Source: a virus
Lineage: Duplodnaviria; Heunggongvirae; Uroviricota; Caudoviricetes
Strand: one strand, 5' to 3'
Virus record (IMG/VR): IMGVR_UViG_3300045007_000064
Location: 124,236-171,128 of that record
DNA: 46,893 nt
How positions within the stretch are numbered: position 1 is the stretch's first letter; each line of letters opens with the position of its first letter. Shown piece by piece: positions 2,710 through 23,503 of this stretch. Below the pieces are notes generated by a model. It was not told the DNA's origin, searched no databases, and saw nothing but the letters and a program-made list of their open reading frames with translations. The position numbers and the translations under genes were made by a program.

Positions 2710-3182
2710 TCCAACCACTCAAATCGATAAATCATATCGATGTCCGCGTCCTGGGCGGCTGCTTCCTGGAGCAGCCGCTCAGCGACACGGGTAAGGTACC
2801 GAGCACCATTCTGGTCTTCCTTGTAGAGCGCGTCTAGGATCGCCTCAGGCTCCTCGGAAACCAATGTCCAGTATCGGAACAGCTCCGGGTACACTAGCGG
2901 CTCAGACCCGTCAGGCTTGCAGTCGGGGCACGGCACAGCATCCGCCGACAGATGCTCTTCGTCCACCTCGTACAGACCGTATCGATCCACAAGCGGGCAC
3001 ATGATCGAGTGGTAGATGTGCGAGACACCTACGCGACTCAGGACGTAGCTACCAGCCTTGGTCTTGTACAGGTCGAATTCGATCCATCGGGACGCCCCGG
3101 GGCGTCTTGATGAGGAGTTGGCGAGGTGCCGACCATCAAACCGCAGGACGCGATTTCCGTTCTTCACTTCATAGGTGGTCAT
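2706..3182 (-). CDS. hypothetical protein with YH-x3-C...PC-x2-C-xP putative Zn site
   Basis: 158-aa ORF, AAGGA RBS, last gene of the minus-strand region; stop overlaps the primase stop. Confidence 0.7.
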   Translation of the reverse strand: MTTYEVKNGNRVLRFDGRHLANSSSRRPGASRWIEFDLYKTKAGSYVLSRVGVSHIYHSIMCPLVDRYGLYEVDEEHLSADAVPCPDCKPDGSEPLVYPELFRYWTLVSEEPEAILDALYKEDQNGARYLTRVAERLLQEAAAQDADIDMIYRFEWLD

Positions 3183-3194
3183 TTCATTCCTTCT

Positions 3195-3485
3195 TTAGTT
3201 CTTAGGCAGACCGAGGATGGCTCGCGCCGTGGCTTCTGATACCCCGATGGCCTTCAATTCTTCTACCGCTGTAAGCTTCGCCTGCAACACCGAAGGGTCC
3301 TCCTCGGGAATCTCGACAGCAGGCTCCGGAGGAACGATCCACTCACCATCAACTAGCTTCCAGCCAATCGCTACCTCTTCGGTGACAGGCATAACCGTGC
3401 AATGCTCTGCGGGTTCATACTCATCTTCGGAATTCCAGAGAATGAGGTTGACAACTTCGTTGTCTTCCAGAACTGCGTATCTCAT
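3195..3485 (-). CDS. small tail-associated protein (tail fibre assembly-like)
   Basis: MRYAVLEDNEVVNLILW...IGWKLVDGEW pattern typical of genes after Gly-rich tail proteins; ATGA overlap. Confidence 0.6.
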   Translation of the reverse strand: MRYAVLEDNEVVNLILWNSEDEYEPAEHCTVMPVTEEVAIGWKLVDGEWIVPPEPAVEIPEEDPSVLQAKLTAVEELKAIGVSEATARAILGLPKN

Positions 3486-4351
3486 GCAAACACCTCCACC
3501 AAAACCACCCCGGGAGCACCGGCACCGCCTGTGGCAGCAGAAGCGCTGCCGGAGTTGTTGGAGGAGCCTCCACCACCGCCGCCGTAGACTCGCCCGGGGT
3601 TCCCAGCTACCACGGCACTTCCTGCGCCGGTATATGCCGCGGGACCTCCACCGCCCATAGCGGACCCTCCACCGCTTCCACCCTGACCAAGGGTGTTATA
3701 GCCGGTGCCGAGCTGTCCAGTGTCACCGTAGGCTAGAATGTCACCGATAGTTCCGTAGCCTCCGCCACCAGCGACAGCGCCGACCATTAGAGCCGTAGAG
3801 GCAGAAGCTAGCCCTCTACCGCCACCAACTGCTTCAGCAAATGTTCCAAAGCTACTAACTCCGCCAGCAGTCCCCGCGGCACCTACGCCACCAGTACCAC
3901 CAGCACCAACAGTAACAGTAACCGATTCAGGCAGATTGGAAGCTAGAATGAAAGATTCGGCGTAACCACCCCCTCCACCTCCGCCACCGCAGGAGTGCTC
4001 ACCTCCAGCAGCCGCGGGTGATCCACCGCCGCCCCCTCCGCCTCCGATAGCTCGAATACGAACGGCCCGCATATCCGGGTAGTTAGCCTTAGTGAAGGTT
4101 CCGCTGGATGTAAACACTAGTGTCTGTACGTATCGGTACCCGGCAAGAATCTGCGGAGCCGCCTGAGATAGCGTCTCAAGTAGGTAGTTGGCGCTACCCA
4201 TTAGCTCAAGCTGTTCAGCCACTTCTTCGCTAGAGATAGCCTCGGAATCGGTGGTACCTCGTGAGGCTGCCTCCTGTGCATTCAGACGACGATATACGTC
4301 GTTGAGGCGCGTGTTCATGGTGCTATTCGCACGTGATCGGTTACTTGCCAC
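3482..4351 (-). CDS. glycine-rich minor tail protein
   Basis: FTSSGTFT...VRIRAIGGGGGGG...VTVTVGAGG...GAPGVVLVE phage Gly-rich domain; position at end of tail module. Confidence 0.75.
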   Translation of the reverse strand: MASNRSRANSTMNTRLNDVYRRLNAQEAASRGTTDSEAISSEEVAEQLELMGSANYLLETLSQAAPQILAGYRYVQTLVFTSSGTFTKANYPDMRAVRIRAIGGGGGGGGSPAAAGGEHSCGGGGGGGGYAESFILASNLPESVTVTVGAGGTGGVGAAGTAGGVSSFGTFAEAVGGGRGLASASTALMVGAVAGGGGYGTIGDILAYGDTGQLGTGYNTLGQGGSGGGSAMGGGGPAAYTGAGSAVVAGNPGRVYGGGGGGSSNNSGSASAATGGAGAPGVVLVEVFA

Positions 4352-7300
4352 GCTTGTCGACCTCCCATTCGGCTACTAGGTCTAGGTTTACGGTCTCGGG
4401 GAAGGTGACGGCATCGGGCACATTCACCTTGAAGGAATCGATCTTGCGAACGATAACATCGGCACGAGGCTCTAGGGCCGTGCCCAGGCGCATCTTCATG
4501 AACGGGTCATCCAGAATGAGCGCACACCAGTCACCCGGGCGGTAGCTTCCCACGAGGGGCGCGATAGAACCATTCAGGGAGACATTCAGGGTGGTGTACG
4601 GCGGTGCGGCCTCGGAGAGGTATCGCTTGGCGAAAGCATAAAGCTCGTTCTTGTCGTCCACACCGCTGACGTTTTCAGTAGCATCCAGCAGAGGCCACTT
4701 ACGTCCGTTGCGTCCCTTCAGAAGGTCCTCAGCGGAGGCGACTCCGATGTTCGGACCGGCTTCTGGACCAAGGTCAGTCTCACCCGCGGCGAAGAATCGA
4801 GTTGCAGCCTCTTCCGCGGATTCATCGATGGATACCTCCGTGATGTTTCCACCGGGGTACTCGAAGATGAGCTTGTCCGCACCGTAGCGACTGATAGGTG
4901 CGACTTCACCTGGTGCCGGAGGGTTGGGGAAGTTGATCGGAAGGAGAACGAAGGTCTTGACAAACTTGTTCTGCTCGCGATCATACGAGCAGTCGATGCG
5001 GTACTCGAATCCATTGATGTTGTCGGAATACTCGTCCAGAGCTTCACCAACAGTCTTCAGCTCGAAACCTCGATACGCAATCGGTTCGATGTTGATTCCT
5101 GTGTAGTCACGGGATTCAAACTGCACACTGAGATTAGCGTTGCCTGGGTAGGGTCCGAAGCTGCTGATGATCACGACTGGACGTACGGTTGCCGTTCCTC
5201 GATGAAGAACGTTCTCCGAAGAGTACGCCGGAATCGTCTTCGATACGGTGAAGGTGTTCGAGTTGGTGTCCACAGACCAAATGTTGTACGTCCCGTTGTA
5301 GGTGTTCGTGACGCTCGCCAGGGACAGCTTGTCGCCCGTCTGCTCCAATACGCTCGCACTGTATCCGGTGAGGCTGAACGTGAAATGCGTGCTCGTAGGT
5401 ACACCTGTTACCGTACGGGTACCGTTGAAGATAGAAGCGCGCTGAGCGGTGAGAGATGTCGGCTCCGTCACTGCGTATGGGAGCGACTGGGCGATGGTGA
5501 AGCTGTTTGAGGTAACAGCCGTGATCGCCCGCGAACCGCTGTGTAGTGAAGTGTTCGTGACGGTGGCCTGAACATCACCCTCGGCCTTAGCCAGGGGCAC
5601 ATCAGTGGAAGCTATGTTGGCACCAGATCGCGCGTAGCTGATAGTGTTCTGCCCCACGGAAGACACCGTGTAGGTACCATTGAACACAGAGGGTCCCATA
5701 ATCTTGAAGTTCGTACCGCTACCCGAAAGGGAGGGCTGGTCGTTTCCCCCACGGAAGAACTCGACATACTTAGTCCCTACGCCGGTCACGGTGTAGCTGC
5801 CGTTGTAGAAGCTTTCCGGAACGGTGATTGTTCCCGAAGCCTTGGAGAGAGGAACAGTCATCGGTACAGGCGGCTTCTTGCCCTTAGCCGCGGCCTGCTT
5901 GTTGGCTGTGACATGGCGCTCGTCTACCCGATACATGACTCGGGTAGCCGTCACATCCGTGACCGCGGCCTCCGAGCTGTTAAATGGCGTACCGATACCA
6001 GCGATCTTGATCTTCTGCCCGATAAGGATGTTGTGTGGTGCAGAGGTCGTAAGGGTGACAAGACCGTTGACCGCTTCCTTGCTGACGACCGTGTATCGAT
6101 CATCCAGACCGGCAATCGTTACCTGGTCGTTCAGCTTCAGGTTGTGCGCCCCGGGCGTGCTGATCCGAGCGGTACCATTCACAATACGACGGCTCGCAAC
6201 CGGGTAGGAGTCATACAGATCGTTCACGGAGAAAGTCATGCCCGCGGTCAAGTTGTGCGGGTACTGTGTCGTGATCGTGGCTACGCTGGACGTGAGCTGC
6301 TTCTTCACGATCTTGTGTGAGTCGAGGCCCTGGATATCCACCACGTTACCGACGCGGAGGTTGTGCGGACGCGCTGTCGTGAAGCGAGTAGTTGTGGTGG
6401 TCGAGGTCTTGGACGTGATATTGGTGGTGTCCGAGAGACCCGTAATCGAGACGGTATCACCTACGGCCAATCCGTGGGCCTTCTCTGTTCGAATGGTTGC
6501 GCGATTATTCGGAGCGTCCAATGCCTTCTCCGAAATGGAGAGAGTGCGATTGACCTCCGCCACGGTCACCGAATTTCCTACGGTAAAGGGGATCGGTGAA
6601 CCTAGCTCGAATGTCAGATACCCGGGAGTGGTCGGGTCCACTCGAACCACGCTCACAGAGGTCGAGCCTACTGTCGCGCGAGCATTCGGTAGGGTCGTCT
6701 GCGGCACGCTAAGCGTGGAGTAGGTCTGGTAACGGAATGTAGTAGGCGTAGGAACGTCCAGGATGACCCAGGTGCCGCTAAACGCCTCGTAGGCATCCCC
6801 GAGTACCATCGTCACGTGCTGTCCCTTAGAGAGGCCGTGAGCGCTCGTAGACGTAACTGTAGCCAATCCAGAGGACATCTGAACAGCCGTGATTGTGGCT
6901 TCGGTGATTGAGACGTCGCTCAGCGCGAAGCGTCCACCATTGCGGTACACCAAATGAGTTGGGCTAGGGGTGTCGGTGATTTCGAACTCACCGTCAAACT
7001 GCGGGCCAACGTCCCGAACCTGGATAGCCTGCCCCGGGGCGATGTTGTGGGGCTTCGAGGTCTGGAGGATGCTGTACCCGTCCAGAGACTCCTTCTTGAT
7101 GATGTCGAAATCGTAAGAGATTCCAGGCTCGATGTAGACGTTCGGGAAATCCGTACCTACAAAGTCGTTAAAGGTAGAGTCAATGAGCGAGCGAATGTAG
7201 TCGAACGCGTCTAGACGCACCGTAACGGTGACATCGGTGTAGTCACCGCGAGGAAGCGGACGCGAAGCCGTACCCTCCACGATGACCAGGGGATAGGTGA

Positions 7301-8678
7301 GGGTATTTACCGAACGGAACATGTTAGATTCTGGACCGTCTGGTACATCTACCGTAAAAACACCATCGATGGTTGAAGGTGAACCATTGAAAGTCTGAAG
7401 CTTAACGTTGATCCGGTCGCCCGTCTTGTACCCGTGGTTTTCCTTGGTGTACCAGTACGACCACCCTCCGCGCATCTCTACAGACTTCAGGTCTGCCACA
7501 GCGGAGCCGCCGATGATTGAGAACCCATCGGTAGTAGGCTGAGGTGTGTCAGCAACTCGGTAGCTTCCGTTGTACTGGAAGTTACTCGGCTCGTTGAACT
7601 CCAGCTTGACTGTAGACCCCGGCTTAGGGGTGGTGTATGATCCGTTGTCGAGCAGAACACTCCAGTTTGCCGGAATGGTCTTCTTTTCCTGGTAAATGGT
7701 GGTGCTACTGTCTGCGGCGTTCGTCCATAGATACTGCTTGGTAGAGGTGTTGGCGGTCGATCCGTCGAAGTATGTACCAACAGAATCTGACGCCTCCCAC
7801 AGCTCCCCCGTGAGGTCGAGGCGGCTTCCGGTAACGACCGAGCCGAGGACACGAGTCACTACGGTCACCTTTACGGTGGAGGGGAAGAGAGAGGTAGAGA
7901 AGACGACGTTGTTCCAGCCGGACGACAGGGTTATAGCCGCGGACTGAGTGGTACCGATCAACACATCAGAAGAATTGTACTGCTGAACATACACAGCAGC
8001 CGAGGCACCGCTAATAGTGGACGGACGAACCCAGTTGGACATAGAGAAAGAGTCCGAGAACTCAATCTCGTTACCTGAATACGTGGATCGAAGGTCGATA
8101 TAGGTTCCGCTTGAAGTGGACTCGGCACGTACGAAGGTATCGATCCCCAGCCCGCCAACGTTCATGCCCGCAGTCGATGTGACCGATAGAGTAGGAGCAG
8201 GACCCCCACCGACCGTGCCTGTGCGCCCAGCGACCGATGTACCGCGCGGGTTGATAGCGAGGTTGGTACGCATGATCTGCCACTCGCTGCTCTCCGGAAC
8301 GTATGAAACCGACGCACCGTACTGATGATTCCAGGTCTTCCAAATCTTGCGGTGGTATAGGTAGCTAGTGAATTCAGACGCCGAAATCTCCAGGTCGCGA
8401 GACGAGAAGGAGTAGCTGCGAGACCAGATGATGCCACCCCAGACACAGACGCCGTTACGCATGACGTACAGCGCCGTGTTTCCCGGCATGGTGGAGTCAT
8501 AGAGGGACATGCTGTCTGTCTCGGCGGTTACAGGAATCTTGCCCTGGAATCGTCCAGCAGCCTTCAGCGAGCACGCATAGGACACATTGCGGAGGGGAAT
8601 CTCTGTAAGGATTCGGTCCGTCATCAGGTCTACAGTGAAATACCGGTAGACTGGCGCAATGGGAGTCTGCTTAGCCAT
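4341..8678 (-). CDS. large minor tail protein (baseplate hub/Tal-like) with inserted CBM-like and nested beta-repeat domains
   Basis: N-terminal YRYFTVDL...EIPLRNVSY...WGGIIWSRSY and C-terminal GDWCALILDD...VRKIDSFKV resemble actinophage hub proteins; multiple HG/HN-x2-GD...FNG repeats. Confidence 0.8.
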   Translation of the reverse strand: MAKQTPIAPVYRYFTVDLMTDRILTEIPLRNVSYACSLKAAGRFQGKIPVTAETDSMSLYDSTMPGNTALYVMRNGVCVWGGIIWSRSYSFSSRDLEISASEFTSYLYHRKIWKTWNHQYGASVSYVPESSEWQIMRTNLAINPRGTSVAGRTGTVGGGPAPTLSVTSTAGMNVGGLGIDTFVRAESTSSGTYIDLRSTYSGNEIEFSDSFSMSNWVRPSTISGASAAVYVQQYNSSDVLIGTTQSAAITLSSGWNNVVFSTSLFPSTVKVTVVTRVLGSVVTGSRLDLTGELWEASDSVGTYFDGSTANTSTKQYLWTNAADSSTTIYQEKKTIPANWSVLLDNGSYTTPKPGSTVKLEFNEPSNFQYNGSYRVADTPQPTTDGFSIIGGSAVADLKSVEMRGGWSYWYTKENHGYKTGDRINVKLQTFNGSPSTIDGVFTVDVPDGPESNMFRSVNTLTYPLVIVEGTASRPLPRGDYTDVTVTVRLDAFDYIRSLIDSTFNDFVGTDFPNVYIEPGISYDFDIIKKESLDGYSILQTSKPHNIAPGQAIQVRDVGPQFDGEFEITDTPSPTHLVYRNGGRFALSDVSITEATITAVQMSSGLATVTSTSAHGLSKGQHVTMVLGDAYEAFSGTWVILDVPTPTTFRYQTYSTLSVPQTTLPNARATVGSTSVSVVRVDPTTPGYLTFELGSPIPFTVGNSVTVAEVNRTLSISEKALDAPNNRATIRTEKAHGLAVGDTVSITGLSDTTNITSKTSTTTTTRFTTARPHNLRVGNVVDIQGLDSHKIVKKQLTSSVATITTQYPHNLTAGMTFSVNDLYDSYPVASRRIVNGTARISTPGAHNLKLNDQVTIAGLDDRYTVVSKEAVNGLVTLTTSAPHNILIGQKIKIAGIGTPFNSSEAAVTDVTATRVMYRVDERHVTANKQAAAKGKKPPVPMTVPLSKASGTITVPESFYNGSYTVTGVGTKYVEFFRGGNDQPSLSGSGTNFKIMGPSVFNGTYTVSSVGQNTISYARSGANIASTDVPLAKAEGDVQATVTNTSLHSGSRAITAVTSNSFTIAQSLPYAVTEPTSLTAQRASIFNGTRTVTGVPTSTHFTFSLTGYSASVLEQTGDKLSLASVTNTYNGTYNIWSVDTNSNTFTVSKTIPAYSSENVLHRGTATVRPVVIISSFGPYPGNANLSVQFESRDYTGINIEPIAYRGFELKTVGEALDEYSDNINGFEYRIDCSYDREQNKFVKTFVLLPINFPNPPAPGEVAPISRYGADKLIFEYPGGNITEVSIDESAEEAATRFFAAGETDLGPEAGPNIGVASAEDLLKGRNGRKWPLLDATENVSGVDDKNELYAFAKRYLSEAAPPYTTLNVSLNGSIAPLVGSYRPGDWCALILDDPFMKMRLGTALEPRADVIVRKIDSFKVNVPDAVTFPETVNLDLVAEWEVDKRGK

Positions 8679-8717
8679 GAAGGCCCCTAAATGTCAGTGT
8701 AAAATGTCGTTCCCACT

Positions 8718-8726
8718 ATCATACCA
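8718..8726 (-). promoter_or_regulatory. extended -10 promoter (TGGTATGAT)
   Basis: TGn-TATGAT 1 nt after the upstream stop, ahead of the 1445-aa gene. Confidence 0.5.
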
Positions 8727-8727
8727 C

Positions 8728-10977
8728 TTATCCAGACCACCCAGATCGGAATCGGATGTCCACGGTGGACGGAGAAAGGGCACGACTCAGCAGACCATTC
8801 GGAAGACGCCAGGTGCGCTTAGCGATGTTGGCAGCAACCTTGGTGTACTGCACCACGTTATATGCCGGGATGGAGTCAACAGCATACGTGCCGTTGAATA
8901 CATCTCGGTTGGTGGTGTTCGTGACCGTACCCGCTGCATTGTTCTCCGCAACATTGGCGTTGGTCTGGGCATAGGAAATTGTGTAGTCCGTAATAGCCGT
9001 GATGACCTTTCCGACGCCATTGAAGATGGTGTTGGAGAGGTTGGTAACACGGCTGTACTGCCCAGGCGCAGCATTGACCGGGACGGCGCGTGCGGTGACG
9101 GCAGCTCCGGTGTTGTTGTAGCTGATGGTGTTCGCTCCCGAGTTTACCGCGGTGACCACGAACGTACCATTGAACTCCTGATTGGACGTGTTGGTAGCTG
9201 TTCCTCCGGAGGTAGCCAGGGATGCGACATTCGCAGCCGTCTTCGCGTACGTGACCGTTGTCGGTGTTGGCGTGGAGATGGTAAACGTACCATTGAAGAG
9301 CGCGTTGGTGATGTTCTGGATGGACCCTCCGGAGGCCGTCAGTGGCACGTTGGGTCCGACCTTCGCGTAGCGGAGGGTGTTCGCTGTCACCTGAGTGATA
9401 GTGAACGTACCATTGAATAGTGCATTGGTTACGGAGGACACCGAGCTGGTGGTCAACGGCGTCTGCGTGGAGTTCACGGTTGCAGCCGCGGCAACATCTA
9501 CCGAAGGCGGACCACCCCAGTTACCCGGGTATCCGTTGGCCAGAGTGTCCGTGTAGATGGTGCGCGCACGCACATGGAATCGCTGAGTGACACCCGCAGG
9601 CAGGTCATCAATAGCGTATCTAGTATTCGACGCGTTGATCTTCGCAATAAGTACAAAGGGGCCTGTACCGTTTACCTGCTGGAAGATAGAGTAGCCGGAA
9701 AGCGAACCGCTGGGGGCTGTCCAGGAAAGTTCCAGGCGGTTCGAGGCGGTGGGAGAATCGATCACCGTTACACCTGTCGGGGCCGCAGGCTCTCCGATGG
9801 GGGTGATGATGACCTGGTTCGACCACGGACTGAGTGATCCCTCAGCATCAGCCAAGGCGTTGCGTGCGGCGACCTTGAAGGTGTACGCAACACCCGGGGT
9901 CAGTCCAGTTACGGTGTAGGTCGTGCCTGTTCCGGTAGTCGTTGCGATAGGCGTATCATCAGCCAGTCGGATTGTGTATCCGGTAATTCCACCAGCACCA
10001 GCGTTTACGGGTGCGGTCCAGGACAGGTTGACGACACCAGGAGACGAGGTTGAAGACGCTCCGGTGAGGTTCTGGGGCGCGCTAGGCGGTCCGGGCGCTA
10101 CGCCCGAGGCTTCGACACTCTGCGGACCCATTCCGGAGACCGAGTTCGAGTATGCGTTACGAGCAGCGATGGTGAAGGCATATGTCTGGTACGGGACAAG
10201 TCCATCAGCCGTGTAGGTGGTTCCCGTACCGGTAGTCGTGCCCACCTGAACGCCGTCACGGAAGATGTTGTAGCCGACAATTCCACCCGTACCTAGGGTA
10301 GCCGGAGCTGTCCAAGTAAGGGCAACTCGGCCCGAGACGGTCGTGCTCGGGGTCGCTACAGGGGTTCGCGGGGCGGTGGGGTGGCCTAGGGTGGTCGTAG
10401 ACAGCGCAGACGACCACGGACCAGCTCCTACTGCGTTGAAGCCTCGTGCTCGCGCCCAGTACTGCGTGTGGTTCTGGAGGTTAGTGTGAAGAACATTGCC
10501 GTCATTGGGCGCATTGACGCCTGTACGGACTCCGGTCGTAAACGACGAGTTGGTGGCTAGCTGGACTTCCCACTTCGTAATCGCGGAGCCACCGTTCGAG
10601 TTGCCCGAGAAGGTGTACCGGAACGAAGTAGCGGTAAGCTGGTCGATAGAGCGGGATGTAGGTGCTGCGGGTACGGTCGCACGGGAAATACCCACGGAGA
10701 ACGGACCAGCGGGACCACCCAGACCCCAAGTACCGGTATCGTACTGTCCAATGGAGACAGTCTGGGAGTAGGATACCGTCCAAGCCCCGAGAAGCTTAGA
10801 ACCGAATCCCGCGGCAAGGGAAACGGAGCCACCGACACCAACACCGTTGACAGTTCCATACCAGCGGTAGTTTTCACCGCGGGTCGAGGGGTCCGAACAC
10901 AGGACGTAGAAGCGTACAACGGAGCCGTCGTCGGTGATTCGCAGCGTACCGCGATTACCTACTGCCCAATCGGCCAT
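8728..10977 (-). CDS. minor tail protein: N-terminal beta domain, 4 fibronectin type III domains, 5 repeat half-units, Dit-like terminal strand
   Basis: Four PxAP...LxWTAP...YxFxxxARN FN3 units; five FNGT-type half repeats; ends VDIRFRSGWSG; AAGGA RBS. Confidence 0.8.
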   Translation of the reverse strand: MADWAVGNRGTLRITDDGSVVRFYVLCSDPSTRGENYRWYGTVNGVGVGGSVSLAAGFGSKLLGAWTVSYSQTVSIGQYDTGTWGLGGPAGPFSVGISRATVPAAPTSRSIDQLTATSFRYTFSGNSNGGSAITKWEVQLATNSSFTTGVRTGVNAPNDGNVLHTNLQNHTQYWARARGFNAVGAGPWSSALSTTTLGHPTAPRTPVATPSTTVSGRVALTWTAPATLGTGGIVGYNIFRDGVQVGTTTGTGTTYTADGLVPYQTYAFTIAARNAYSNSVSGMGPQSVEASGVAPGPPSAPQNLTGASSTSSPGVVNLSWTAPVNAGAGGITGYTIRLADDTPIATTTGTGTTYTVTGLTPGVAYTFKVAARNALADAEGSLSPWSNQVIITPIGEPAAPTGVTVIDSPTASNRLELSWTAPSGSLSGYSIFQQVNGTGPFVLIAKINASNTRYAIDDLPAGVTQRFHVRARTIYTDTLANGYPGNWGGPPSVDVAAAATVNSTQTPLTTSSVSSVTNALFNGTFTITQVTANTLRYAKVGPNVPLTASGGSIQNITNALFNGTFTISTPTPTTVTYAKTAANVASLATSGGTATNTSNQEFNGTFVVTAVNSGANTISYNNTGAAVTARAVPVNAAPGQYSRVTNLSNTIFNGVGKVITAITDYTISYAQTNANVAENNAAGTVTNTTNRDVFNGTYAVDSIPAYNVVQYTKVAANIAKRTWRLPNGLLSRALSPSTVDIRFRSGWSG

Positions 10978-10997
10978 GTTAGATCAGTCCTTAGTCG

Positions 10998-13900
10998 TTA
11001 GAGGTTGTAAGCGAATGTCGTGCTGGTGACAGAGACAATCGTCTTAGTACCATTATACGATTCATTCGTAGTGTTAGTAATCGTGACCCCCGCGACAGCG
11101 TTCGACTCGTTGGTAGTCAGTGTCCAGTCACAGAACGTAAACGTGGTGCTGCTAGGTGTGCTTTCCACGATCTTGTATCCGTTGAATCCGGCGCGGGTGG
11201 CACCGGCTACCAGGATGCGGTCGCCCACGGCGAATCCGTGCGCAGCCGTAGTCGTCACCGTAACGAGGTTGGTCGTGGCGTTGCCGTCTAGGTTGCCAGA
11301 GAGGGTCGCGGTAGTTGGCAGAGCGATAATAACCTGGTCACCTACAGCGAATCCGTGCGCGGCAGCGGTCGTCATGACAATCTGAGTACCGCTACGAGCC
11401 TTCTTCGTGATAGATGCGTTGGCAGGCATGGCGACCGTGATCTGATCACCCACGGCGAAGGTGTGAGCCGCGGTGGTCGTGAGGATCGCCTGATTGTTGG
11501 TAAGCTGCTTGCTGCTAACCGTGGCGGCTGTAGGCAGTGCGACCACCACCGAGTCCCCCGCGGAGAATCCGTGGGCGTGCTGGAACCCGAGGGTGGCCAC
11601 GTTGCTCGTCAGGGACTTCTGGTTGGGAGTCGCGACCGTGGGCATAGCCACGACCACAGAGTCTCCCGCAGCTACACCGTGTGGAGCCTCGGTGGTCAGC
11701 GTTGCTACGTTCGAGGTGCGAGACTTGGTGACGATCTTAGAGGTTTCCGTGGACTGAACATCAACCACGTCACCAACCGCGTAGCCGTGTGGCGTTGAGG
11801 TGGTGAGAGTGACGACATTGTTCTCCAGCTTCTTCTTGCTTAGCGTAGCCGTCTCAGGCAGCGCTACAGTTAGCTGCTCACCGGGGATGAGGTAGTGAGT
11901 GTCTGCGGTCTCCAGTGTGACCGTGTTGTTCGACAGGGCCTTGCTGACGACCTCGACATTGGTAACGTCATCAAAGTACTCGATGACGTTATCACCGGGA
12001 GCAAACTTGATCCAGTCTGTCAGCGTGGTAAGCATACTGCGGTGGCCCGCGACCTCACCGTTGTAGGTGACAGAACGGTTATAGGTGTCAATAACCAGTA
12101 CATCGTTATTGACGAGCCGAATCTGCCCACTGGTGGACATCGGGTCGATGTCATCTGTAGAGATTTCGAAGCTGAACGAGTACGGGAAGACCTCAGAGAC
12201 AGCCGTGACGATCCGGGTCTGATCACTCTCCGAGAAGGGAATGACCATATTCAGAAGCGAAACCTCGTCACCTACCCGGAGGTGGTTCGGGGCCGTGGTC
12301 TTGATCGTAGCTACACCGCCGAGGGAGGACACCTCGTAGGCGTCCGCAATAAGACCGGCACCACGAAGGGGCTTTGCCAGCTCCATCGTCTCATTAGTTG
12401 TGGCATTGTAGATACGCGTACCCGATCCGGCAGGACCGGTAATCGTGAAGATGCCCGTAACATCCGCCGTTCCGATGTTGGTCAGAACGTCCATGTTGTA
12501 GGCCGTACGAGTGGACGTGGATGCGTTAGGGAGACCCGACCACTTGTAGACTTCGTACGGGGTCGTAGTCGTGTTGCCGCTGAATGCAGGGCCGGTGTAA
12601 ACACCCTCAACAAACGTCAAATCGTCCCACCACACCGGTCCGTCTGTCAGCGTACCTCCGGTGATCATGAATAGGTCAGTAGGGTTTTCAACCGTGAATG
12701 TAATGCGCGGTTCATGGACGCCTGCAACATTCGGAGCCGCTACATCAGCAACGTACGTCCCATTGACTCGATATCTGATCGACCTACGAGGGTAAGATAC
12801 CGCCGCGGTCCCCTGAGGTGCCGTCAGACGCACCTTTCCGACCGCGGTGTAGGTCTTTCCAACGGTCAGTCCTAGGGAGACAGCCGTACGGTAGTAGTAT
12901 GCGGTGTTTGTACTCCGAGGAATGATCTTCATCGAGTAGGAACCCGAGGATGCCCACTGGCTGGAGCGTACAGTCCAGCCAGTGCCGTCGTACGAGCCAA
13001 CCACCATCGCGGGGATAGTCGCAGTAAGAATGGACACGGAGTTGTCAACTCCCGCTGTCCAAGAAGGTGTCAGGTCAGAATCAGGCGTCGTGCTTCCGTC
13101 AAAGTAGTCTCCGACGTAGGCGACCTTCTCCATCAGAACGCGGTCGCTGTTGAGTCGGCGTCCGGTGTTCCCCGGGTTCTCGCGCAGGTAGGGGATGGCT
13201 CGTACGTGTGTGATCGTGCTTCCGAGCGCCTTGGAGGTGACGGAAACGCGAACAGTCTGACCGGGCTGGATGGTGACGTTCGGGCTGTAGACGAACTCAC
13301 TCGTCACTGCGGTGGCTCCGGCGTAGGGAGAAATCGAGTACTGAAGTGTGATGGGCGGCGCGCCAACAGGCACACTGAAGTCACGGCTCACCGTCCACAC
13401 CTCGCCTGGCGCGGCAGTGGCGGCGGTAGACTCATAAGGCAAGAGGGTGCCTGTCGGGGCTGCATCAGCAACAGCCGCCTGCCCATTGCCGACCCACGAA
13501 ACGTTACCTGTGGCGCTCCAGCCTGTGTTGGAGATGAAGCGGGGGTTAGTGCAGAAGTTTCTACGGACTTCGAGAGTGCCGGAAGTGTCTTCGAAAGAGG
13601 GGTTGGTAAAGAGGTTTGTGTGAACGGAATCTGGAACGTTAGAGGAGTTGTAGCTACCGCTCGTGTAGCCGTCAGGGTCTGACGAGTCCCAGTGGTACTT
13701 GATGGGGTCGCCAGCGCGGAGGTTGATCTGGAAGTTCGTGCGTCCGCGGGCGTTGACGGTCTTGACCGAGGGGCGCGAGGAAAGACGTACCCACGCAGCC
13801 TTCGTAGGCCCTTCGTGAGCGAACAACCATCCACCCTTTCGAGTCAGGTTGGTTGCCAGAATAAGGCGGTCGATGGACTTGGTGAGGCTTTCTTCTGCAT

Positions 13901-14690
13901 CCTTTGGTACGAAGAATCCCGTGAGGGTTAGCTGGCGGGCCTTGGTGCGGCCTTCTACGTCGTAGGAGCCGTCCTCGGTGCCTCGACTGATGTCCGGAAT
14001 TTCCGGGTCCGCCTGGCCCCACCAACCTTCGATATCGGTGACAACCCAGAGGGTGTCATCTTCATCGATGGTGTTCATGACAAGACCGTTCAGATTCACG
14101 TCCGCGCCAAGACGCAGACCGTTGACGACCTGCGGAACGGCAGCCATTGCCTTGTTGGCAATGGCGTTCTTCTCAGCCTGGGTGATGTTGTCGAAGTACC
14201 CTCCGATATACGAGGCCTGCTCGATCAGCAGCGCGTCCACCATGAAGTACGCACCTGCCTTACCGGCGAGAGGCTGAATAATGGACACGTCAGCGAAGGT
14301 CGCACCCGCGGGAGCAACCCAAACACCTCCGATACGGAACTCCGTGTCATCCGTGTCCATGCGCAGGGTCGCGGAGGTGACTGTGCTCTGGACAATACCC
14401 AGAGAGTTTAGCCACTCAACCTGCAAGATGATTTCAGCGTGGTCGCTCTCCGGAATGGTGATAGGAAGACGAGTGTACGCGGAGAATGCGTACGACTCGC
14501 CTGCTACAACCGGAATGGGCGCAGCGATAGCGACACCCGTACCGTTTACTGCATCCTTGGTAATCTTCAGAGAGTACTTGCCGTAGAATGCCCACTCATC
14601 TGTGACAGACAGCGTGCTTCCAGTAAGCGGCTGGAATGCAGCCGTGGTACCCGTCCGCAGGGACGGGTCCTTAGCCAGATTGATACGCAT
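10998..14690 (-). CDS. distal tail protein (Dit)-like with CBM-like and beta-repeat insertions
   Basis: Follows tape measure; Dit core motifs WVVTDIEGWW, RQLTLTG, FQINLRAGDPIKY, VIDTYNRSV..WIKFAPGDNVIEY. Confidence 0.8.
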   Translation of the reverse strand: MRINLAKDPSLRTGTTAAFQPLTGSTLSVTDEWAFYGKYSLKITKDAVNGTGVAIAAPIPVVAGESYAFSAYTRLPITIPESDHAEIILQVEWLNSLGIVQSTVTSATLRMDTDDTEFRIGGVWVAPAGATFADVSIIQPLAGKAGAYFMVDALLIEQASYIGGYFDNITQAEKNAIANKAMAAVPQVVNGLRLGADVNLNGLVMNTIDEDDTLWVVTDIEGWWGQADPEIPDISRGTEDGSYDVEGRTKARQLTLTGFFVPKDAEESLTKSIDRLILATNLTRKGGWLFAHEGPTKAAWVRLSSRPSVKTVNARGRTNFQINLRAGDPIKYHWDSSDPDGYTSGSYNSSNVPDSVHTNLFTNPSFEDTSGTLEVRRNFCTNPRFISNTGWSATGNVSWVGNGQAAVADAAPTGTLLPYESTAATAAPGEVWTVSRDFSVPVGAPPITLQYSISPYAGATAVTSEFVYSPNVTIQPGQTVRVSVTSKALGSTITHVRAIPYLRENPGNTGRRLNSDRVLMEKVAYVGDYFDGSTTPDSDLTPSWTAGVDNSVSILTATIPAMVVGSYDGTGWTVRSSQWASSGSYSMKIIPRSTNTAYYYRTAVSLGLTVGKTYTAVGKVRLTAPQGTAAVSYPRRSIRYRVNGTYVADVAAPNVAGVHEPRITFTVENPTDLFMITGGTLTDGPVWWDDLTFVEGVYTGPAFSGNTTTTPYEVYKWSGLPNASTSTRTAYNMDVLTNIGTADVTGIFTITGPAGSGTRIYNATTNETMELAKPLRGAGLIADAYEVSSLGGVATIKTTAPNHLRVGDEVSLLNMVIPFSESDQTRIVTAVSEVFPYSFSFEISTDDIDPMSTSGQIRLVNNDVLVIDTYNRSVTYNGEVAGHRSMLTTLTDWIKFAPGDNVIEYFDDVTNVEVVSKALSNNTVTLETADTHYLIPGEQLTVALPETATLSKKKLENNVVTLTTSTPHGYAVGDVVDVQSTETSKIVTKSRTSNVATLTTEAPHGVAAGDSVVVAMPTVATPNQKSLTSNVATLGFQHAHGFSAGDSVVVALPTAATVSSKQLTNNQAILTTTAAHTFAVGDQITVAMPANASITKKARSGTQIVMTTAAAHGFAVGDQVIIALPTTATLSGNLDGNATTNLVTVTTTAAHGFAVGDRILVAGATRAGFNGYKIVESTPSSTTFTFCDWTLTTNESNAVAGVTITNTTNESYNGTKTIVSVTSTTFAYNL

Positions 14691-17600
14691 TAGTAGGCTG
14701 CTCCTGCTCTCTGACGCTTAGACATCTCGCGGGTAAGGCGCTCAACCAATTCGTCGGTGCTTTCACCCGGAAGCTGATAAACGTTGATAATCGTCGTTCC
14801 ACCGCCACCATTTGTCAGGTAGTCAATGATGGCCTTGTCTCTGTCGGACATTCCGTTGGCGTCCAGAGGCTCGATGCGCTCTGCGCGTCCAGCTTCTGCC
14901 ACCTGTACAATAGTACCACCATTTGACGGATAGACAGTTCCACCCTTGGCCATAGCGGCGTGGACGTGATCCCAGTGAGTAGCACGAACCGCGCCAGTCC
15001 AGTAGTGCGGCTTTCCGTTGAGGAGCTGACGGTTACCGGCAGGCGAGTAGATAAGCTCTCGCGCGTTCGGGAACAGGGCCAGCATGCGGTTGAATGTGTC
15101 CATTGTAGCGGGCACAACGTCGATAGCACGACCGGAACCGTGGTAAGACTTTCCACCGTTGACGGTGATCGATCCTGGACGGTACGCGGACGTAATACGT
15201 GCACCAGGAATGGTGCGCTCAACGATAGCCTGCATGGCTCGCCAGCCCATGGCGTTCGCGGGCTTGTCCGATCCTTCGCTACCGCCGAAGAACTTCTTGA
15301 ACGCGGTTCCGATGTTCTCAGCGATCTTCACCGGCACACCGCCGATGAGGTCGGTGAACACGTTGTCACCGGCACCTGACATGAGCGGCTTGATCATGCC
15401 ATCGATCAGGTGCTTCTTCACCGCGTCAAGCGGGCTGATGAAGAAGTCACCGATAATCGACATGATGTTGCCGAGGGTGTCGAGGAAGTCTCCACCGAAG
15501 TCGGTCGTACCACCCTTAGCGAAGCGCTGCGTACGGGCCTGGTAGACGCCACCCGAGGCGAAGGCCTGACCACGACGTGCCGCGCGGTTCATGCGCTCGA
15601 CAGCAGCCGGTCCACCGACCGCACGAGTCCATTCAGGACGCATGATAGCCTCTCCACCAGACAGGTGCAGCCAGCCACCGGTCGGGGAGTAGAACTTGTG
15701 GATGTCCCTACCCGGGCTGTAGCCAGGCATAACACCACCGGTTGCGAAGGCTACCTTCTTAGCGGGAGGCAGCTTCAGGTTGTCCATGCCGAAGTTACCG
15801 GCGATGTCATTCCAGAAGGAACGCAGACCCTTGTTGTAGACTGTCTCGATAACGAAGTTGACCGGAGCAGCCGCAGCCTTCTTGATACCGTCCCACGCCT
15901 TGGCGATACCGTCAGCAACATTCTCGAACGCCTGCTGGACGAGACCGACAGCCGTCTTGATCGGGTTGAAGATATTCTTGTCGATCCACAGCCAGATTGT
16001 GTTTAGACCGTTCTGGAGGTCCTGCCACGCCTTCTGGATGACTGTACCGGCGTACGCGAACGCAAGCTGGAGGACATTCAGCGCCAGACGAATCGGAGCG
16101 AAAATGTAGCGGTCAATCCACTGCCATACGGTGTTGATCGCGTTCTGGATGTTGACCCAGACCTGCCCGATGAACTTACCGACGTTGTTGAATACCTGAC
16201 CAACAAACTCCATAGCCGCACCGATGGGCTTGAAGATGTAGGTGTCGATCCAGATGAACGCAGCCTCCATCGCATCAGCGATGCCCTGCCATACCGTCGT
16301 GAAGAACGAAGCGATATTGTTCCATACGTCGGAGAAGAAAGTGAAGATACCGTTCCAGAAATTGTCCCAGTTCTCACCGAATCCGGTGATGGCACCGATG
16401 ATCCAGGTGATGACGTTAGTCAGGACCTGGACAACGACCTTCAGGATAGCAGCCAAGACCTGCACGATCACCGTGATAATGGTCGCCAGAATGGGGACGA
16501 TGAATCCGAGGACGTTAGCAAGCAGCTCGAATACCGGCACCAGCGAGGTAACGATCAGAGCAATCAGAGGAGCAATAGCTGAGACGATGGTTGTAAACAC
16601 CGGCACGAGCGACTGGACGATGGTCGTGATGACCGGTACGATGGCTTCGATAATCTGAGTGAAAATCGGGATCAGAGGCTGTAGGGCCTCCATGATCTGC
16701 GCACCCGCGTCCGCGAAAGTCTTGGACAGGTCCGCCCATACGGCGTCCATGTCCTTCTTGAACTGGTCATTCGTGTTGTAGAGCGTGATGAACAGTCCGA
16801 CCAGGGCAGCGATGGCACCGATCACGATACCGACCGGGCCAAGCATGAGCGCGCCTAGGCCGCGCCCGAACGTAGCAAGGCCCGTGCCCGCGGTGGACAT
16901 GGCTGAGCCAATGCCGCCCATGGCAGCCTGAAGCGCACGAGACGGAGCGCCCATGATTTCGAACGCACGACTCATGCCCAGGGTGTTGCCGGTTACAACT
17001 CGGCTGATGGTACCTAGAACGGTGAGCTTTCCGGTAATTCCGTTCACCGTGGTGAGTGTGGCTCCACCGAGGTTATTGAACTTCGTGAATCCAGCGACCA
17101 AGCTGCGGCCTGCGTCAACGGCGATACCCATCGGCTTCAGCAGACCGATGATGCTACCCGCGAATACCTTGATACCGAATGTAGCTGTAGTTGCTACAAG
17201 ACCAATGGCGGACATGAACGCGAAGATGCGTCCGAAGAAGTCCATGATGGCCTTGTTACCGGGGTCAGCAACGAAGTCCAGAACCGCACCGAAGATGGCA
17301 TTCAGCGTGTCGAAGAAGACCCGCATTGCACCCGTGTCGGTCATAGCCGATACAATCTTCGTGACAGTCACGACCAGCTCAGCCAGCGCGGGAGCTGAGT
17401 CTACAGTCTGCTGGAGGATGTTCTCCAGAGCCGGAGCACCCTGTAGAAGAACCTCGAAGGCCTTTCCTAGGTTCTGGTTCTCACCCAGACGTCCCAGGAT
17501 GCCCGCAAGCGATGTGAGAGTGTCCAGGACCTTCGTAGCATTGGTGGCAACGTTCTGGAAGAATACGACCAGTCCGGGGCTGCTGCCCCAATCCGAGGTC

Positions 17601-19303
17601 GCCTTCTCTAGCCAGGTGAGGAGGATATCTCCGCCTGTACCGGGGCCGAGGTTGGCATCGATGATGCCGCCGATTCCGCGGAATACATTGCCGAAGATGT
17701 TGCCGAACTTGACGGCTGTAGCTTCGGCGCGTCCGAAGAAGTCTACAAGAGCATTCTTACCCGTGACCGAGTTGAGGTAGTTCGCAAACGTACCCATCTG
17801 GCCGTTGATGAAATCGAAGAAGCGCTGCGCCATCGGGGCAGTCGCCACGAAGATCGACAGCAGAATGTCGTAGAGGTTTCCAGCTACTCCCGCAAACGTA
17901 CGGAGCAGGTCAGCCGAAGACGAGAAGATCGACGCAAGCTTGTCCAGGTTTGACCCAGTGGTGATGAAGTTCGCGAGGATAATCGCGGCGTCACCCATCG
18001 CGCCAGCAACCTGACCGATACCGGTAGCAACAACCGGGTAGGCCTTCTCCATGAGGATTTCGATACCGCGCTGGAGCTTAGGCAGGAATGCGTTAGCCGC
18101 AATCTCGCTCAGAGCCTCCATCTGCGGACGCAGCGAGTTCAGGAAGAGAACGAACTTGCGCTGGGCGTTGTTCAGTCCGTCGTCCCATGCAGCACCAGCA
18201 GCCGCAGCAGCCGCGGGAGCGCTCGAAGCGGCGTCCTGGCGGTCGTCTACGTTCTGGGCGTCCTTACGGGCCTGCGTAACGTCTCGTAGAGCGTCTTCCT
18301 CGTCCTGAAGGGCAGCCTTGACAGCCTTGGCCTTGTCCTCCTCGGCCTTGGCTACGCGATTGCGTGCGTCGATAACGCTATCGAGTCCGTTGACACCTGT
18401 GCGGGCTAGGCGCTCCTGCTCCGCGGCGAGGTCAGCGTTGGAGTCCTTCGCCTTGCGGTAGTTGAGTTCAGCTTCCTGGTACGCCAGCTCGGCCTCACGG
18501 CGGGCACGGCTGTTCGGCGGAAGGTCCTGAACGCGAGCCAGTGTCTCGCGAGCCTTCTCTAGATTGAGAGCGGCACGCTGCTCGTTGAGAGCCGCGTCCT
18601 CTGCCTCGAAACCGAGCTGCTGAATCTCTTCACGACCGGCACGGATGGCATTGGTCAGATCGATTTGCGCTTCTGCGACTGCTCTGTTAGCATTGATCAA
18701 CCGCTCACGGTTGCCCTCAATGACGCGGGCAAGGGACCGCTCGGCATCTTCAATACGTCGAGCGGCTGCTTCGCGCGCCTGGGAATCACGGACGGCAGAC
18801 AGAGCTGTCTGCGTTCCTGTAGTTGCTGCCTTTGTTGACTGCTTATTGAGCTGCTGTAGTGCCTTACCGACTCCGCCTAGGGCGAGACGGGAGGCAATCA
18901 TACCCGCGCCAAGAGCGGCGTAGGCGTTACCTAGAACCGCGACCGTGCTGGCGGCACCACCCGCCGCTCCGATGAGCGCTCCTAGCGAGGAAATCACCGC
19001 GGAGATGCCACCGACTACGGTGGTGAGGGCGGTACCGAGTGTGTATCCAGAGCGGACGAGGGTGGAGAAGCTACGACGAGCTGCCTCAGCCTCGGGCACC
19101 ATCGAGCGGATACCGTTTGCTACGCGGCGGAATGCGTTTGTATCTACACCGCGGTTGAAGCCATCGGAGAAGGCGCGACCCAGGGTTTCACCGTCACGTC
19201 GGATAGTCCCCTGAGAACCACGAATGGCCTTCGAGATATCACTCTGCACATTCTGGGTTGCTGCCCGGAATGTGATGTAGACGGGAGTCATTAGACTAAC
19301 CAT
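14690..19303 (-). CDS. tape measure protein with C-terminal M15-like Zn peptidase domain
   Basis: 1537 aa, helical and W-periodic repeats, follows chaperones; SYHGSGRAID...HWDHVH motifs. Confidence 0.92.
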   Translation of the reverse strand: MVSLMTPVYITFRAATQNVQSDISKAIRGSQGTIRRDGETLGRAFSDGFNRGVDTNAFRRVANGIRSMVPEAEAARRSFSTLVRSGYTLGTALTTVVGGISAVISSLGALIGAAGGAASTVAVLGNAYAALGAGMIASRLALGGVGKALQQLNKQSTKAATTGTQTALSAVRDSQAREAAARRIEDAERSLARVIEGNRERLINANRAVAEAQIDLTNAIRAGREEIQQLGFEAEDAALNEQRAALNLEKARETLARVQDLPPNSRARREAELAYQEAELNYRKAKDSNADLAAEQERLARTGVNGLDSVIDARNRVAKAEEDKAKAVKAALQDEEDALRDVTQARKDAQNVDDRQDAASSAPAAAAAAGAAWDDGLNNAQRKFVLFLNSLRPQMEALSEIAANAFLPKLQRGIEILMEKAYPVVATGIGQVAGAMGDAAIILANFITTGSNLDKLASIFSSSADLLRTFAGVAGNLYDILLSIFVATAPMAQRFFDFINGQMGTFANYLNSVTGKNALVDFFGRAEATAVKFGNIFGNVFRGIGGIIDANLGPGTGGDILLTWLEKATSDWGSSPGLVVFFQNVATNATKVLDTLTSLAGILGRLGENQNLGKAFEVLLQGAPALENILQQTVDSAPALAELVVTVTKIVSAMTDTGAMRVFFDTLNAIFGAVLDFVADPGNKAIMDFFGRIFAFMSAIGLVATTATFGIKVFAGSIIGLLKPMGIAVDAGRSLVAGFTKFNNLGGATLTTVNGITGKLTVLGTISRVVTGNTLGMSRAFEIMGAPSRALQAAMGGIGSAMSTAGTGLATFGRGLGALMLGPVGIVIGAIAALVGLFITLYNTNDQFKKDMDAVWADLSKTFADAGAQIMEALQPLIPIFTQIIEAIVPVITTIVQSLVPVFTTIVSAIAPLIALIVTSLVPVFELLANVLGFIVPILATIITVIVQVLAAILKVVVQVLTNVITWIIGAITGFGENWDNFWNGIFTFFSDVWNNIASFFTTVWQGIADAMEAAFIWIDTYIFKPIGAAMEFVGQVFNNVGKFIGQVWVNIQNAINTVWQWIDRYIFAPIRLALNVLQLAFAYAGTVIQKAWQDLQNGLNTIWLWIDKNIFNPIKTAVGLVQQAFENVADGIAKAWDGIKKAAAAPVNFVIETVYNKGLRSFWNDIAGNFGMDNLKLPPAKKVAFATGGVMPGYSPGRDIHKFYSPTGGWLHLSGGEAIMRPEWTRAVGGPAAVERMNRAARRGQAFASGGVYQARTQRFAKGGTTDFGGDFLDTLGNIMSIIGDFFISPLDAVKKHLIDGMIKPLMSGAGDNVFTDLIGGVPVKIAENIGTAFKKFFGGSEGSDKPANAMGWRAMQAIVERTIPGARITSAYRPGSITVNGGKSYHGSGRAIDVVPATMDTFNRMLALFPNARELIYSPAGNRQLLNGKPHYWTGAVRATHWDHVHAAMAKGGTVYPSNGGTIVQVAEAGRAERIEPLDANGMSDRDKAIIDYLTNGGGGTTIINVYQLPGESTDELVERLTREMSKRQRAGAAY

Positions 19304-22462: not shown

Positions 22463-23503
22463 TTAGACCGTGGGGTCTTCGACCGAGTTGAGGATGTTGT
22501 CCACGTCGCGGTCAGCGTTGTAGTTCACGTTACCCGGGACGTTGTAGTCAACAGCGGTCTCGCCGTCTTCCAGGTCCGTGACTGCACGAGCACCGGCTTC
22601 AACGGTAGCCGTACCCGTAGCGGCTCCCGCTGCTACGTTGGCTGCCGTCTTGGCGTAGGTGAAGGTGGTGTTGGAGGGTGTAGCCAGGATCGTGTACGAA
22701 CCGTCGAACGTTGCATCCACACCGACAACGTTCACGCGGTCACCCGGCTCGAAGCCGTGCGGCGTGGACGTGGTGATGGTAGCCACGTTGGAAGCGAGTT
22801 CCTTGTTGGTGATCGAGGCGGTCAGCGCGCCGTGCCAGGTGTAGAAGCCACGGAGACCCGAGGGTGCCCATGTCGTCTTGGCGAAAGCGTACGGACGGTT
22901 TGTAGCCTCCGGGAACTCCCAGCGACCGTCAGGACCCTCACCGAACAGCGAGTTACCCAGACCGTAACCTTCGAACGTGTTAGCCAGGAGGCCGTTCTCG
23001 ATTACGCGGTCACCGCTCTGGCGGAGCTTGGCGTACGGGAATACCCAGTGGTAGAACGGAGTCGTAGCCGAAGGCTTACCGTCGATGATCGCACGGGTCC
23101 AGCTCTCGATTGCCACACCGTTACCGGAGGGGTCGTCACCTACGGCAGGAGCAGCCCAACCGATGGACTTGTGGTCCGGGCTGGCGAACGTGCCGAGGTT
23201 CTTGCGGAGAAGCAGACCACCAGAGATGAGCGAAGTAAGCTCGGGGTCCGGTTCGCAGATCGCGAACTCCATGGTGATGCGCTTCAGGGTGTCAGGGGAC
23301 TTGAACGAGACGCAGACCGCACCGTTGGCGGACTTCTCTGTAATCTCGTCGCCTTCTTCGTACTCAGGGGTGAAGCTCACGCGCATGAATGCGTGGGTCG
23401 TGTAGCTGTCTCCTGGGCCGTTGAGAAGGTTCCCGTTAGCGTCCAGACGTGTGACACGGACTGCCACACCCTGGATGCTGGAGGTGTTTTCCTGGGTTGC
23501 CAT
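22463..23503 (-). CDS. major tail protein with C-terminal beta-repeat decoration domain
   Basis: SIQGVAVRVTRLDANG...YEEGDEITEKSANG..C tube fold pattern; one complete HGFEPGD...FDGSY unit. Confidence 0.85.
   Translation of the reverse strand: MATQENTSSIQGVAVRVTRLDANGNLLNGPGDSYTTHAFMRVSFTPEYEEGDEITEKSANGAVCVSFKSPDTLKRITMEFAICEPDPELTSLISGGLLLRKNLGTFASPDHKSIGWAAPAVGDDPSGNGVAIESWTRAIIDGKPSATTPFYHWVFPYAKLRQSGDRVIENGLLANTFEGYGLGNSLFGEGPDGRWEFPEATNRPYAFAKTTWAPSGLRGFYTWHGALTASITNKELASNVATITTSTPHGFEPGDRVNVVGVDATFDGSYTILATPSNTTFTYAKTAANVAAGAATGTATVEAGARAVTDLEDGETAVDYNVPGNVNYNADRDVDNILNSVEDPTV

Follow-up and report, generated by a model that had tools for sequence, protein, structure and literature searches.

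We analysed a 46,893-nt stretch of viral DNA (positions 124,236 to 171,128 of the IMG/VR record IMGVR_UViG_3300045007_000064, hereafter the window), a minus-strand block of tail and head genes from a large Microbacterium siphophage whose closest named phages, Zooman, Big4, Pumpernickel, A3Wally and Cece (each ~190 kb), share 72-77% nucleotide identity with it over the aligning parts. Coordinates below are those of the window unless another locus is named, and all window features lie on the minus strand. Our subject is a pair of adjacent genes in this block, encoding the distal tail protein Dit (10998-14690, 1230 aa) and an FN3 protein (8728-10977, 749 aa; hereafter the partner). The initial annotation, made from the sequence, had proposed that a series of unfinished domains at the end of Dit is completed in trans by the partner. 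The Dit gene directly follows the tape measure gene (14690-19303, 1537 aa; phrog_4197, E 1e-101), as expected of a Dit, and its start overlaps the tape measure stop. As annotated initially, the Dit and partner genes are 20 nt apart (10978-10997) and out of frame, and the second has its own ribosome-binding site (RBS), AAGGA at 10988-10992, placed 10 nt ahead of the partner ATG. Stop codons are present in the downstream frames of the junction, one of them a TGA in the frame of the partner, 9 nt upstream.

Repeat halves in these proteins were counted by regular expressions and by profile hidden Markov models (HMMs) built from the repeats. The whole domain is defined by the major tail protein, where a single contiguous complete FCCH-like unit (residues 238-287, 22643-22792) contains both of the strings from which the unit had been originally described, the first half covering residues 238-262 and the second half residues 258-287. 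Both counting methods showed that the Dit stalk consists of seven FCCH-like first halves (HMM starts at residues 921, 957, 993, 1029, 1065, 1101 and 1140) and two second halves (starts at 1165 and 1205). The first five of these first halves (HYLIPGE, HGYAVGD, HGVAAGD, HGFSAGD and HTFAVGD; residues 921-1090, 11421-11930; HMM 30-40 bits) are orphans with no second half in cis, and first halves 6 and 7 are followed by FNGYKIV and YNGTKTIV to give the two complete tip domains (11001-11390) that Dit has by itself and with which it ends. The partner carries zero first halves and exactly five second halves (FNGTFTI, FNGTFTI, FNGTFVV, FNGVGKVI and FNGTYAV; HMM starts at 514, 555, 595, 645 and 686; residues 514-716, 8830-9438; 26-36 bits), after which it terminates in VDIRFRSGWSG. 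The per-repeat HMM scores of 24-40 bits were far above chance, and every string behind the initially reported balance of 7 = 2 + 5 was located where it had been placed.

The relation of these repeats to FCCH domains was apparent in structure comparison. At the sequence level E1_FCCH (PF16190) scored 17.5 bits, under its gathering cutoff of 29.5. Foldseek aligned the complete domains of the Dit model to the FCCH regions of UBA1 and UBA6 with a probability of 1.0 and to 2v31 with TMt 0.54. When the whole chain of the Dit-alone model was searched against the PDB, no match at E <= 0.001 was returned, and only local FCCH matches were seen. The remainder of the partner forms a putative side arm (9538-10977) made of an N-terminal domain (residues 1 to ~100) and the four FN3 domains listed in the initial annotation (residues ~101-480; PF00041 in four stretches, 129.9 bits), and this combination of N-domain and FN3 module is common to minor tail proteins of many Microbacterium phages.

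The N-terminal ring domain of the window Dit was recognised by phrog_5577 (minor tail protein; residues 200-334, E 7e-13), and its relatives P0285 and P0288 gave weak PF05709 Sipho_tail matches of 13.9 and 20.4 bits, below the cutoff of 24.2. The C-terminal galectin-like domain (residues ~731-915, 11946-12500) matched the PF22768 SPP1_Dit C-domain at residues 859-912 with 30.6 bits versus a cutoff of 25. This alignment covers profile positions 38-89 of 97, leaving the last ~8 positions absent, and the window Dit therefore does not hold the whole C-domain with its last strand on one chain. Alignment of the window Dit with unsplit Dits stops at ..NVIEYFDDVTNVE, and after ..APGDNVIEYFDDVTNVE, the last part alignable to them, the chain enters the stalk. 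The unsplit single-chain Dits P0289, P0290 and P0294 matched PF22768 to position 97 of 97, with the sequence ..ILEIDTQNREVAFNGE..LAPGNNIIEFEDTGNPESQATCKIFYRSGWLS and the C-terminal end ..NIIEFEDTGNPESQATCKIFYRSGWLS, and unsplit relatives finish in ..IEFED..(K/C)(I/V)FYRSGWLS, aligned to the end of the profile. Thus, where PF22768 stops at 89 of 97 in the window Dit, unsplit relatives place ..FYRSGWL(S/G), in agreement with the earlier claim that Dit has no final strand of its own. The corresponding Dit-type final strand, ..SPSTVDIRFRSGWSG, was found at the C-terminus of the partner (residues 735-749, 8731-8775) and is aligned there to ..SQATCKIFYRSGWLS, with which unsplit Dits end. A Pfam scan of the last 60 residues of the partner alone gave nothing useful and is uninformative because this stretch is too short; the argument rests on the alignment to unsplit Dits.

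An additional FCCH-like domain is inserted within the Dit C-domain itself (residues ~786-845, 12155-12334, ..VATIKTTAPNHLRVGDEVSL..TRIVTAVSEVFPYSFSF..). The HMM finds only the first half of this insert (start at 791, 18 bits), its second half being recognised by eye only, and the insert is kept across the family (HGLRVGD in Cece).

The division between two genes proved to be conserved. At all 11 loci inspected directly (six named phages and five metagenomic contigs), Dit was followed after 2-24 nt by the FN3 partner, at Dit identities down to 32%, and the family is a large one: at 90% identity its Dits fall into 201 clusters, and at 50% identity the partners are covered by 61 representatives. 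A second half forms the end of each of the 120 listed Dit relatives, none of which terminates in RSGW. Relatives with one fused gene of ~2000 aa, for which the initial annotation had suggested looking, were found neither among the 120 listed Dits nor among the 61 representatives from an exhaustive partner-tail search performed with no length filter. The Dit relative search spanned lengths of 676-2153 aa, so that a fusion of this size could have shown up, and the partner-tail search matched only proteins starting with the N-domain and FN3, or fragments. A 2021-aa Dit match, P0010, was considered as a fused form and rejected; its extra length is N-terminal, and it ends in a second half.

The numbers of halves were likewise maintained. 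Across the family, first and second halves in cis follow the patterns 7 + 2, 8 + 3, 9 + 4 and 11 + 6, and HMM counts gave a first-half excess of five in 88 of the 100 family Dits whose anchor was usable, and the other 12 were off by one. In P0111, the sole off-by-one Dit checked by eye, the deviation was due to a missed weak repeat, and the same probably applies to the other off-by-one Dits. Five second halves were counted in 68 of the partners scanned, most of the others being fragments or differing by one weak repeat, and full-length, well-scored partners always had five. Added complete domains were seen only at the Dit tip or as whole units in the partner (loci L006 and L011), as would be predicted from a nested, out-and-back topology of the stalk. 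In the partners P0174, P0183 and P0185, modules resembling carbohydrate-binding modules (CBM-like) separate the RSGW strand from the fifth second half.

To model the complex, we used residues 725-1230 of Dit with an 80-row alignment and residues 480-749 of the partner with a 40-row alignment. The pair was predicted with an interface score from aligned errors (ipSAE) of 0.76 (range 0.75-0.78), compared to 0.01 for the best control. The model runs had at least 94% of contacts in common, with more than 1000 contacts and a partner predicted local distance difference test (pLDDT) score of at least 82. The lowest-error residue pairs defined a nested register, in which first halves 5, 4, 3, 2 and 1 were matched to second halves 1, 2, 3, 4 and 5, respectively: HTFAVGD of first half 5 faced the first FNGTFTI, first half 4 the second FNGTFTI, first half 3 FNGTFVV, first half 2 FNGVGKVI and first half 1 FNGTYAV. 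The register and the separation of the ipSAE value from the control support, at the level of models, the original suggestion that the two chains zip into one stalk. The confident interface also includes residues 693-748 of the partner and residues 736-783 and 856-907 of the Dit C-domain, with no listed residue pair between these regions.

Comparison of the complex with the single chains, a check proposed in the initial annotation, pointed in the same direction. The pLDDT of the partner tail was 83-86 in the presence of Dit versus 39 when Dit was replaced with an unrelated protein. The Dit segment modelled alone by AlphaFold2 reached a predicted template modelling (pTM) score of 0.53; here, each orphan repeat consisted of a two-strand hairpin and ~21 non-regular residues that included the HGFxxGDxVxV segment, and the two tip domains were fully stranded with pLDDT of 91-97. 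Complete folding of each protein on its own, which had been named as an outcome that would speak against a shared stalk, was not observed in these models. Pairing of first halves with each other, the second such outcome, was likewise not indicated, as judged from secondary structure and confidence scores. We know of no complex resembling the Dit-partner pair, which makes recall of a solved complex by the predictor unlikely.

Taken together, these results lead us to regard it as likely, on support that is computational throughout, that Dit joins the protein encoded next to it in a single composite stalk, assembled through serial fold complementation in trans. In this model the Dit chain would exit the peripheral galectin-like domain just ahead of the last strand of that domain, run outward as first halves 1-7 of small FCCH-like beta-barrels, turn, and close only barrels 7 and 6. 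The C-terminal ~230 residues of the partner would then return down the rod, with the five second halves completing barrels 5, 4, 3, 2 and 1 in that order, and ..VDIRFRSGWSG at the partner C-terminus would slot into the Dit domain as the final strand that this domain lacks. Because the partner would close barrels 5-1, its N-terminal domain and four FN3 domains would leave the rod where barrels 5 and 6 meet, forming a side arm that probably serves adhesion to the cell surface. The steps of this mechanism that the analysis establishes are the repeat counts, the missing strand, the conserved split and the confident in-register predicted interface; from these we infer co-folding of the chains in the virion at one partner per Dit subunit, and the adhesion role of the arm.

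Several points weigh against the composite stalk. The constant first-half excess of five means that the two genes show no co-variation in number, and for the same reason a test of number co-variation is uninformative, as only the tip completed in cis varies. The partners L008, L012, P0188 and P0191 end in ..GLYTIG(S/F/T) without RSGW, and completion of the Dit C-domain in these cases is unexplained. In addition, Dit has a short strand of its own, VEVVSKAL, located after ..IEYFDD, which could in principle fill part of the last-strand position. In calibration, 58 of 80 solved complexes attained the ipSAE mark, as did 2 of 110 mismatched pairs; these counts are only rough for the present pair because it was predicted with our own alignments. 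Structure predictors also tend to join complementary halves of known folds, and since the FCCH fold is known to the predictor, the success of the complex prediction shows compatibility and register rather than binding or a complex in the virion. Finally, the Dit-alone model retained a high pLDDT of 78-88 over the orphan repeats.

This high local confidence favours the alternative that the two proteins are structurally independent, with the orphan first halves forming a self-sufficient hairpin-repeat rod or pairing between neighbouring subunits of the Dit ring, and with the second halves of the partner forming a structure of their own or binding elsewhere. We consider such independence improbable, as the orphan repeats in that very model were only hairpins joined to non-regular residues, with a pTM of 0.53, and the partner tail was modelled at pLDDT 39 without Dit. 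The match of five to five is moreover kept across the family while the tip in cis varies, the final strand of Dit is located on the partner, and the predicted interface is in register.

Alternatively, the partner might bind as predicted and do so only transiently, acting as an assembly factor or scaffold that is absent from the mature virion or exchanged later. Nothing speaks for this explanation directly, although phage tails do use chaperones encoded beside fibre genes. We regard it as very improbable, because more than 1000 predicted contacts, through which five hydrophobic cores and the last strand of a domain are completed, could not easily be reversed. The FN3 repeats of the partner, together with the CBM-like and glycine-rich modules of its relatives, are typical of exposed virion fibres, and the relatives are annotated as minor tail proteins. 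The close spacing of the genes, just 20 nt apart, might suggest that the split is artefactual or results from recent damage, whether by a sequencing error that shifted the frame, by decay into a pseudogene or by programmed frameshifting into one fused chain, but this explanation is effectively refuted by the persistence of the split in six phage genomes, five contigs and more than 100 family members with gaps of 2-24 nt and different frames, by the partner's own ATG and RBS and the stops in the gap, and by the start of the partner with an N-terminal domain and FN3 that are also N-terminal in proteins of other phages.

Returning to the composite stalk, we further propose, tentatively and as an extension that may well prove wrong, that the five half-barrels and the RSGW strand constitute a conserved, obligately co-folding plug and socket, in which the partner tail would stay unfolded until templated by the orphan hairpins of Dit. 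Such a plug might serve as a universal adaptor for swapping host-binding arms, because the plug is constant and the distal part is variable in FN3 number and in CBM-like, glycine-rich and extra FCCH modules. If this extension were true, attachment would be essentially irreversible, completion of the Dit domain would be tied to arrival of the fibre as an assembly checkpoint, and the pair would represent a split-fold zipper of natural origin, spanning several domains, for which no counterpart has been described.

Docking of accessory fibres on Dit is usually ascribed to folded adaptor domains or to one strand. In the present case, five successive domains appear to be encoded in halves by two genes, with a sixth domain receiving its last strand in the same way, and our literature search found no paper describing such a two-gene split or this mode of attachment. 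If confirmed, the stalk would be a natural example of multi-domain fold complementation, relevant to protein engineering and to co-folding studies, and would explain the constant pairing of these two "minor tail protein" genes. It would also provide an annotation rule, by which one structural unit is recognised from a Dit with a second half at its end and, after it, an FN3 protein with a terminal RSGW. Isolated phages of the family include Zooman, Pumpernickel, A3Wally, Big4 and Cece.

We view the stalk as a variation on the theme of evolved Dits, with an attachment mode not previously described. Evolved Dits of siphophages have a peripheral galectin-like domain into which carbohydrate-binding modules, or modules of other kinds, are inserted. 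The window Dit is similar to them in its location directly after the tape measure, in the presence of a Dit N-domain and an SPP1_Dit-type C-domain, and in the decoration of the periphery with extra CBM-like and FCCH-like modules. It differs in that its array is nested rather than tandem and unfinished in cis, with the last strand of the domain on a second polypeptide. In chaperone-usher pili, donor-strand complementation completes an incomplete beta fold from another chain and results in a very stable non-covalent link. In contrast to the one strand per Ig-like fold donated in these pili, one partner here would supply five half-domains and a strand in an antiparallel zipper. FCCH-like domains are also known to decorate siphophage tail tube proteins (PMC13576161). 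The stalk units resemble these decorations and the FCCH of E1 (PF16190; PDB 2v31) in being small six-stranded barrels, whereas the tail-tube and E1 copies are contiguous single domains within one chain.

A nested stalk contained in a single chain was found in the hub or Tal-like protein (4341-8678, 1445 aa) of the same window, which served as an in-cis control. This stalk (residues 675-1165, 5184-6656) shows ~6 first halves and then ~6 second halves by eye, and the whole-chain HMM pattern of the protein, with F for a first and s for a second half, was FFFsFFFFFssss. AlphaFold2 modelled the stalk with pLDDT of 89.7 and pTM of 0.72, compared with a pTM of 0.53 for the Dit segment alone, and the best PDB match of this model was the Si3 domain of cyanobacterial RNA polymerase (8emb; E 4.8e-6, TM 0.12). 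In Si3, which belongs to the beta-prime subunit, chain segments far apart from each other come together to form SBHM-2 to -5 (PMC10895346), and this solved structure indicates that nested barrel rods exist in nature. Si3 is an elongated array of small barrel-type domains with a chain running out and back, an arrangement matched by the hub stalk model. It differs from the Dit-partner stalk in being a single chain of SBHM domains with an unrelated function, and at a TM of 0.12 the likeness is an architectural analogy only. The unusual feature at the Dit locus is that the nested rod is divided between two genes. In the hub stalk model the turn is formed by a helix and loop of lower confidence (approximately residues 920-945), and hub relatives differ in the depth of the stalk, some having extra complete domains.

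With regard to the origin of the split, the initial annotation had suggested that a nested Dit was interrupted by an inserted minor-tail gene, a scenario that is possible and unproven. No unsplit nested Dit ancestor was found in the relatives searched. The unsplit metagenomic Dits P0289, P0290 and P0292-P0294 contain approximately seven tandem complete FCCH-like domains (FsFsFs...) and have their own ..YRSGWLG end. The unsplit Dits P0289-P0294 were rejected as direct ancestors, since their arrays are tandem, not nested, and lie upstream of profile position 41. At L013 (unsplit Dit at 669-3266 of that locus), the sole unsplit locus with gene context, a Tal-like gene comes directly after Dit with no FN3 gene between them. 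A protein that begins with the same N-domain and FN3 repeats is encoded by the second gene after the tape measure in the small Microbacterium phages Gina (L009, genes 38-39) and Lonelysoil (L010, genes 36-37). These proteins contain no FCCH halves, and the two phages neither support nor refute the insertion scenario. The C-terminal part of the N-domain and FN3 protein in Gina and Lonelysoil (..RIRWYxNPD..) resembles a structural tail domain.

Partners of the family vary in the modules that they carry. In the L006 partner (9983-13492 of that locus), a glycine-rich domain (PF21722) is placed among the FN3 repeats, and second halves 4 and 5 are separated by one complete FCCH-like domain. In the L011 partner (7450-10296 of that locus), second half 5 is followed by two such complete domains and then by the final strand. 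Giant partners of ~1900-2100 aa (L008, 13063-19371; L012, 10079-15997; P0188; P0191) have five second halves followed by many CBM-like repeats. In the window, a glycine-rich protein of 289 aa is encoded by a separate gene (3482-4351). The public-collection record of the partner for the window genome (P0122) is 467 aa long and begins at the internal Met283; its recorded start looks miscalled, because the open reading frame and all relatives are ~745-750 aa in length with a conserved N-terminal domain.

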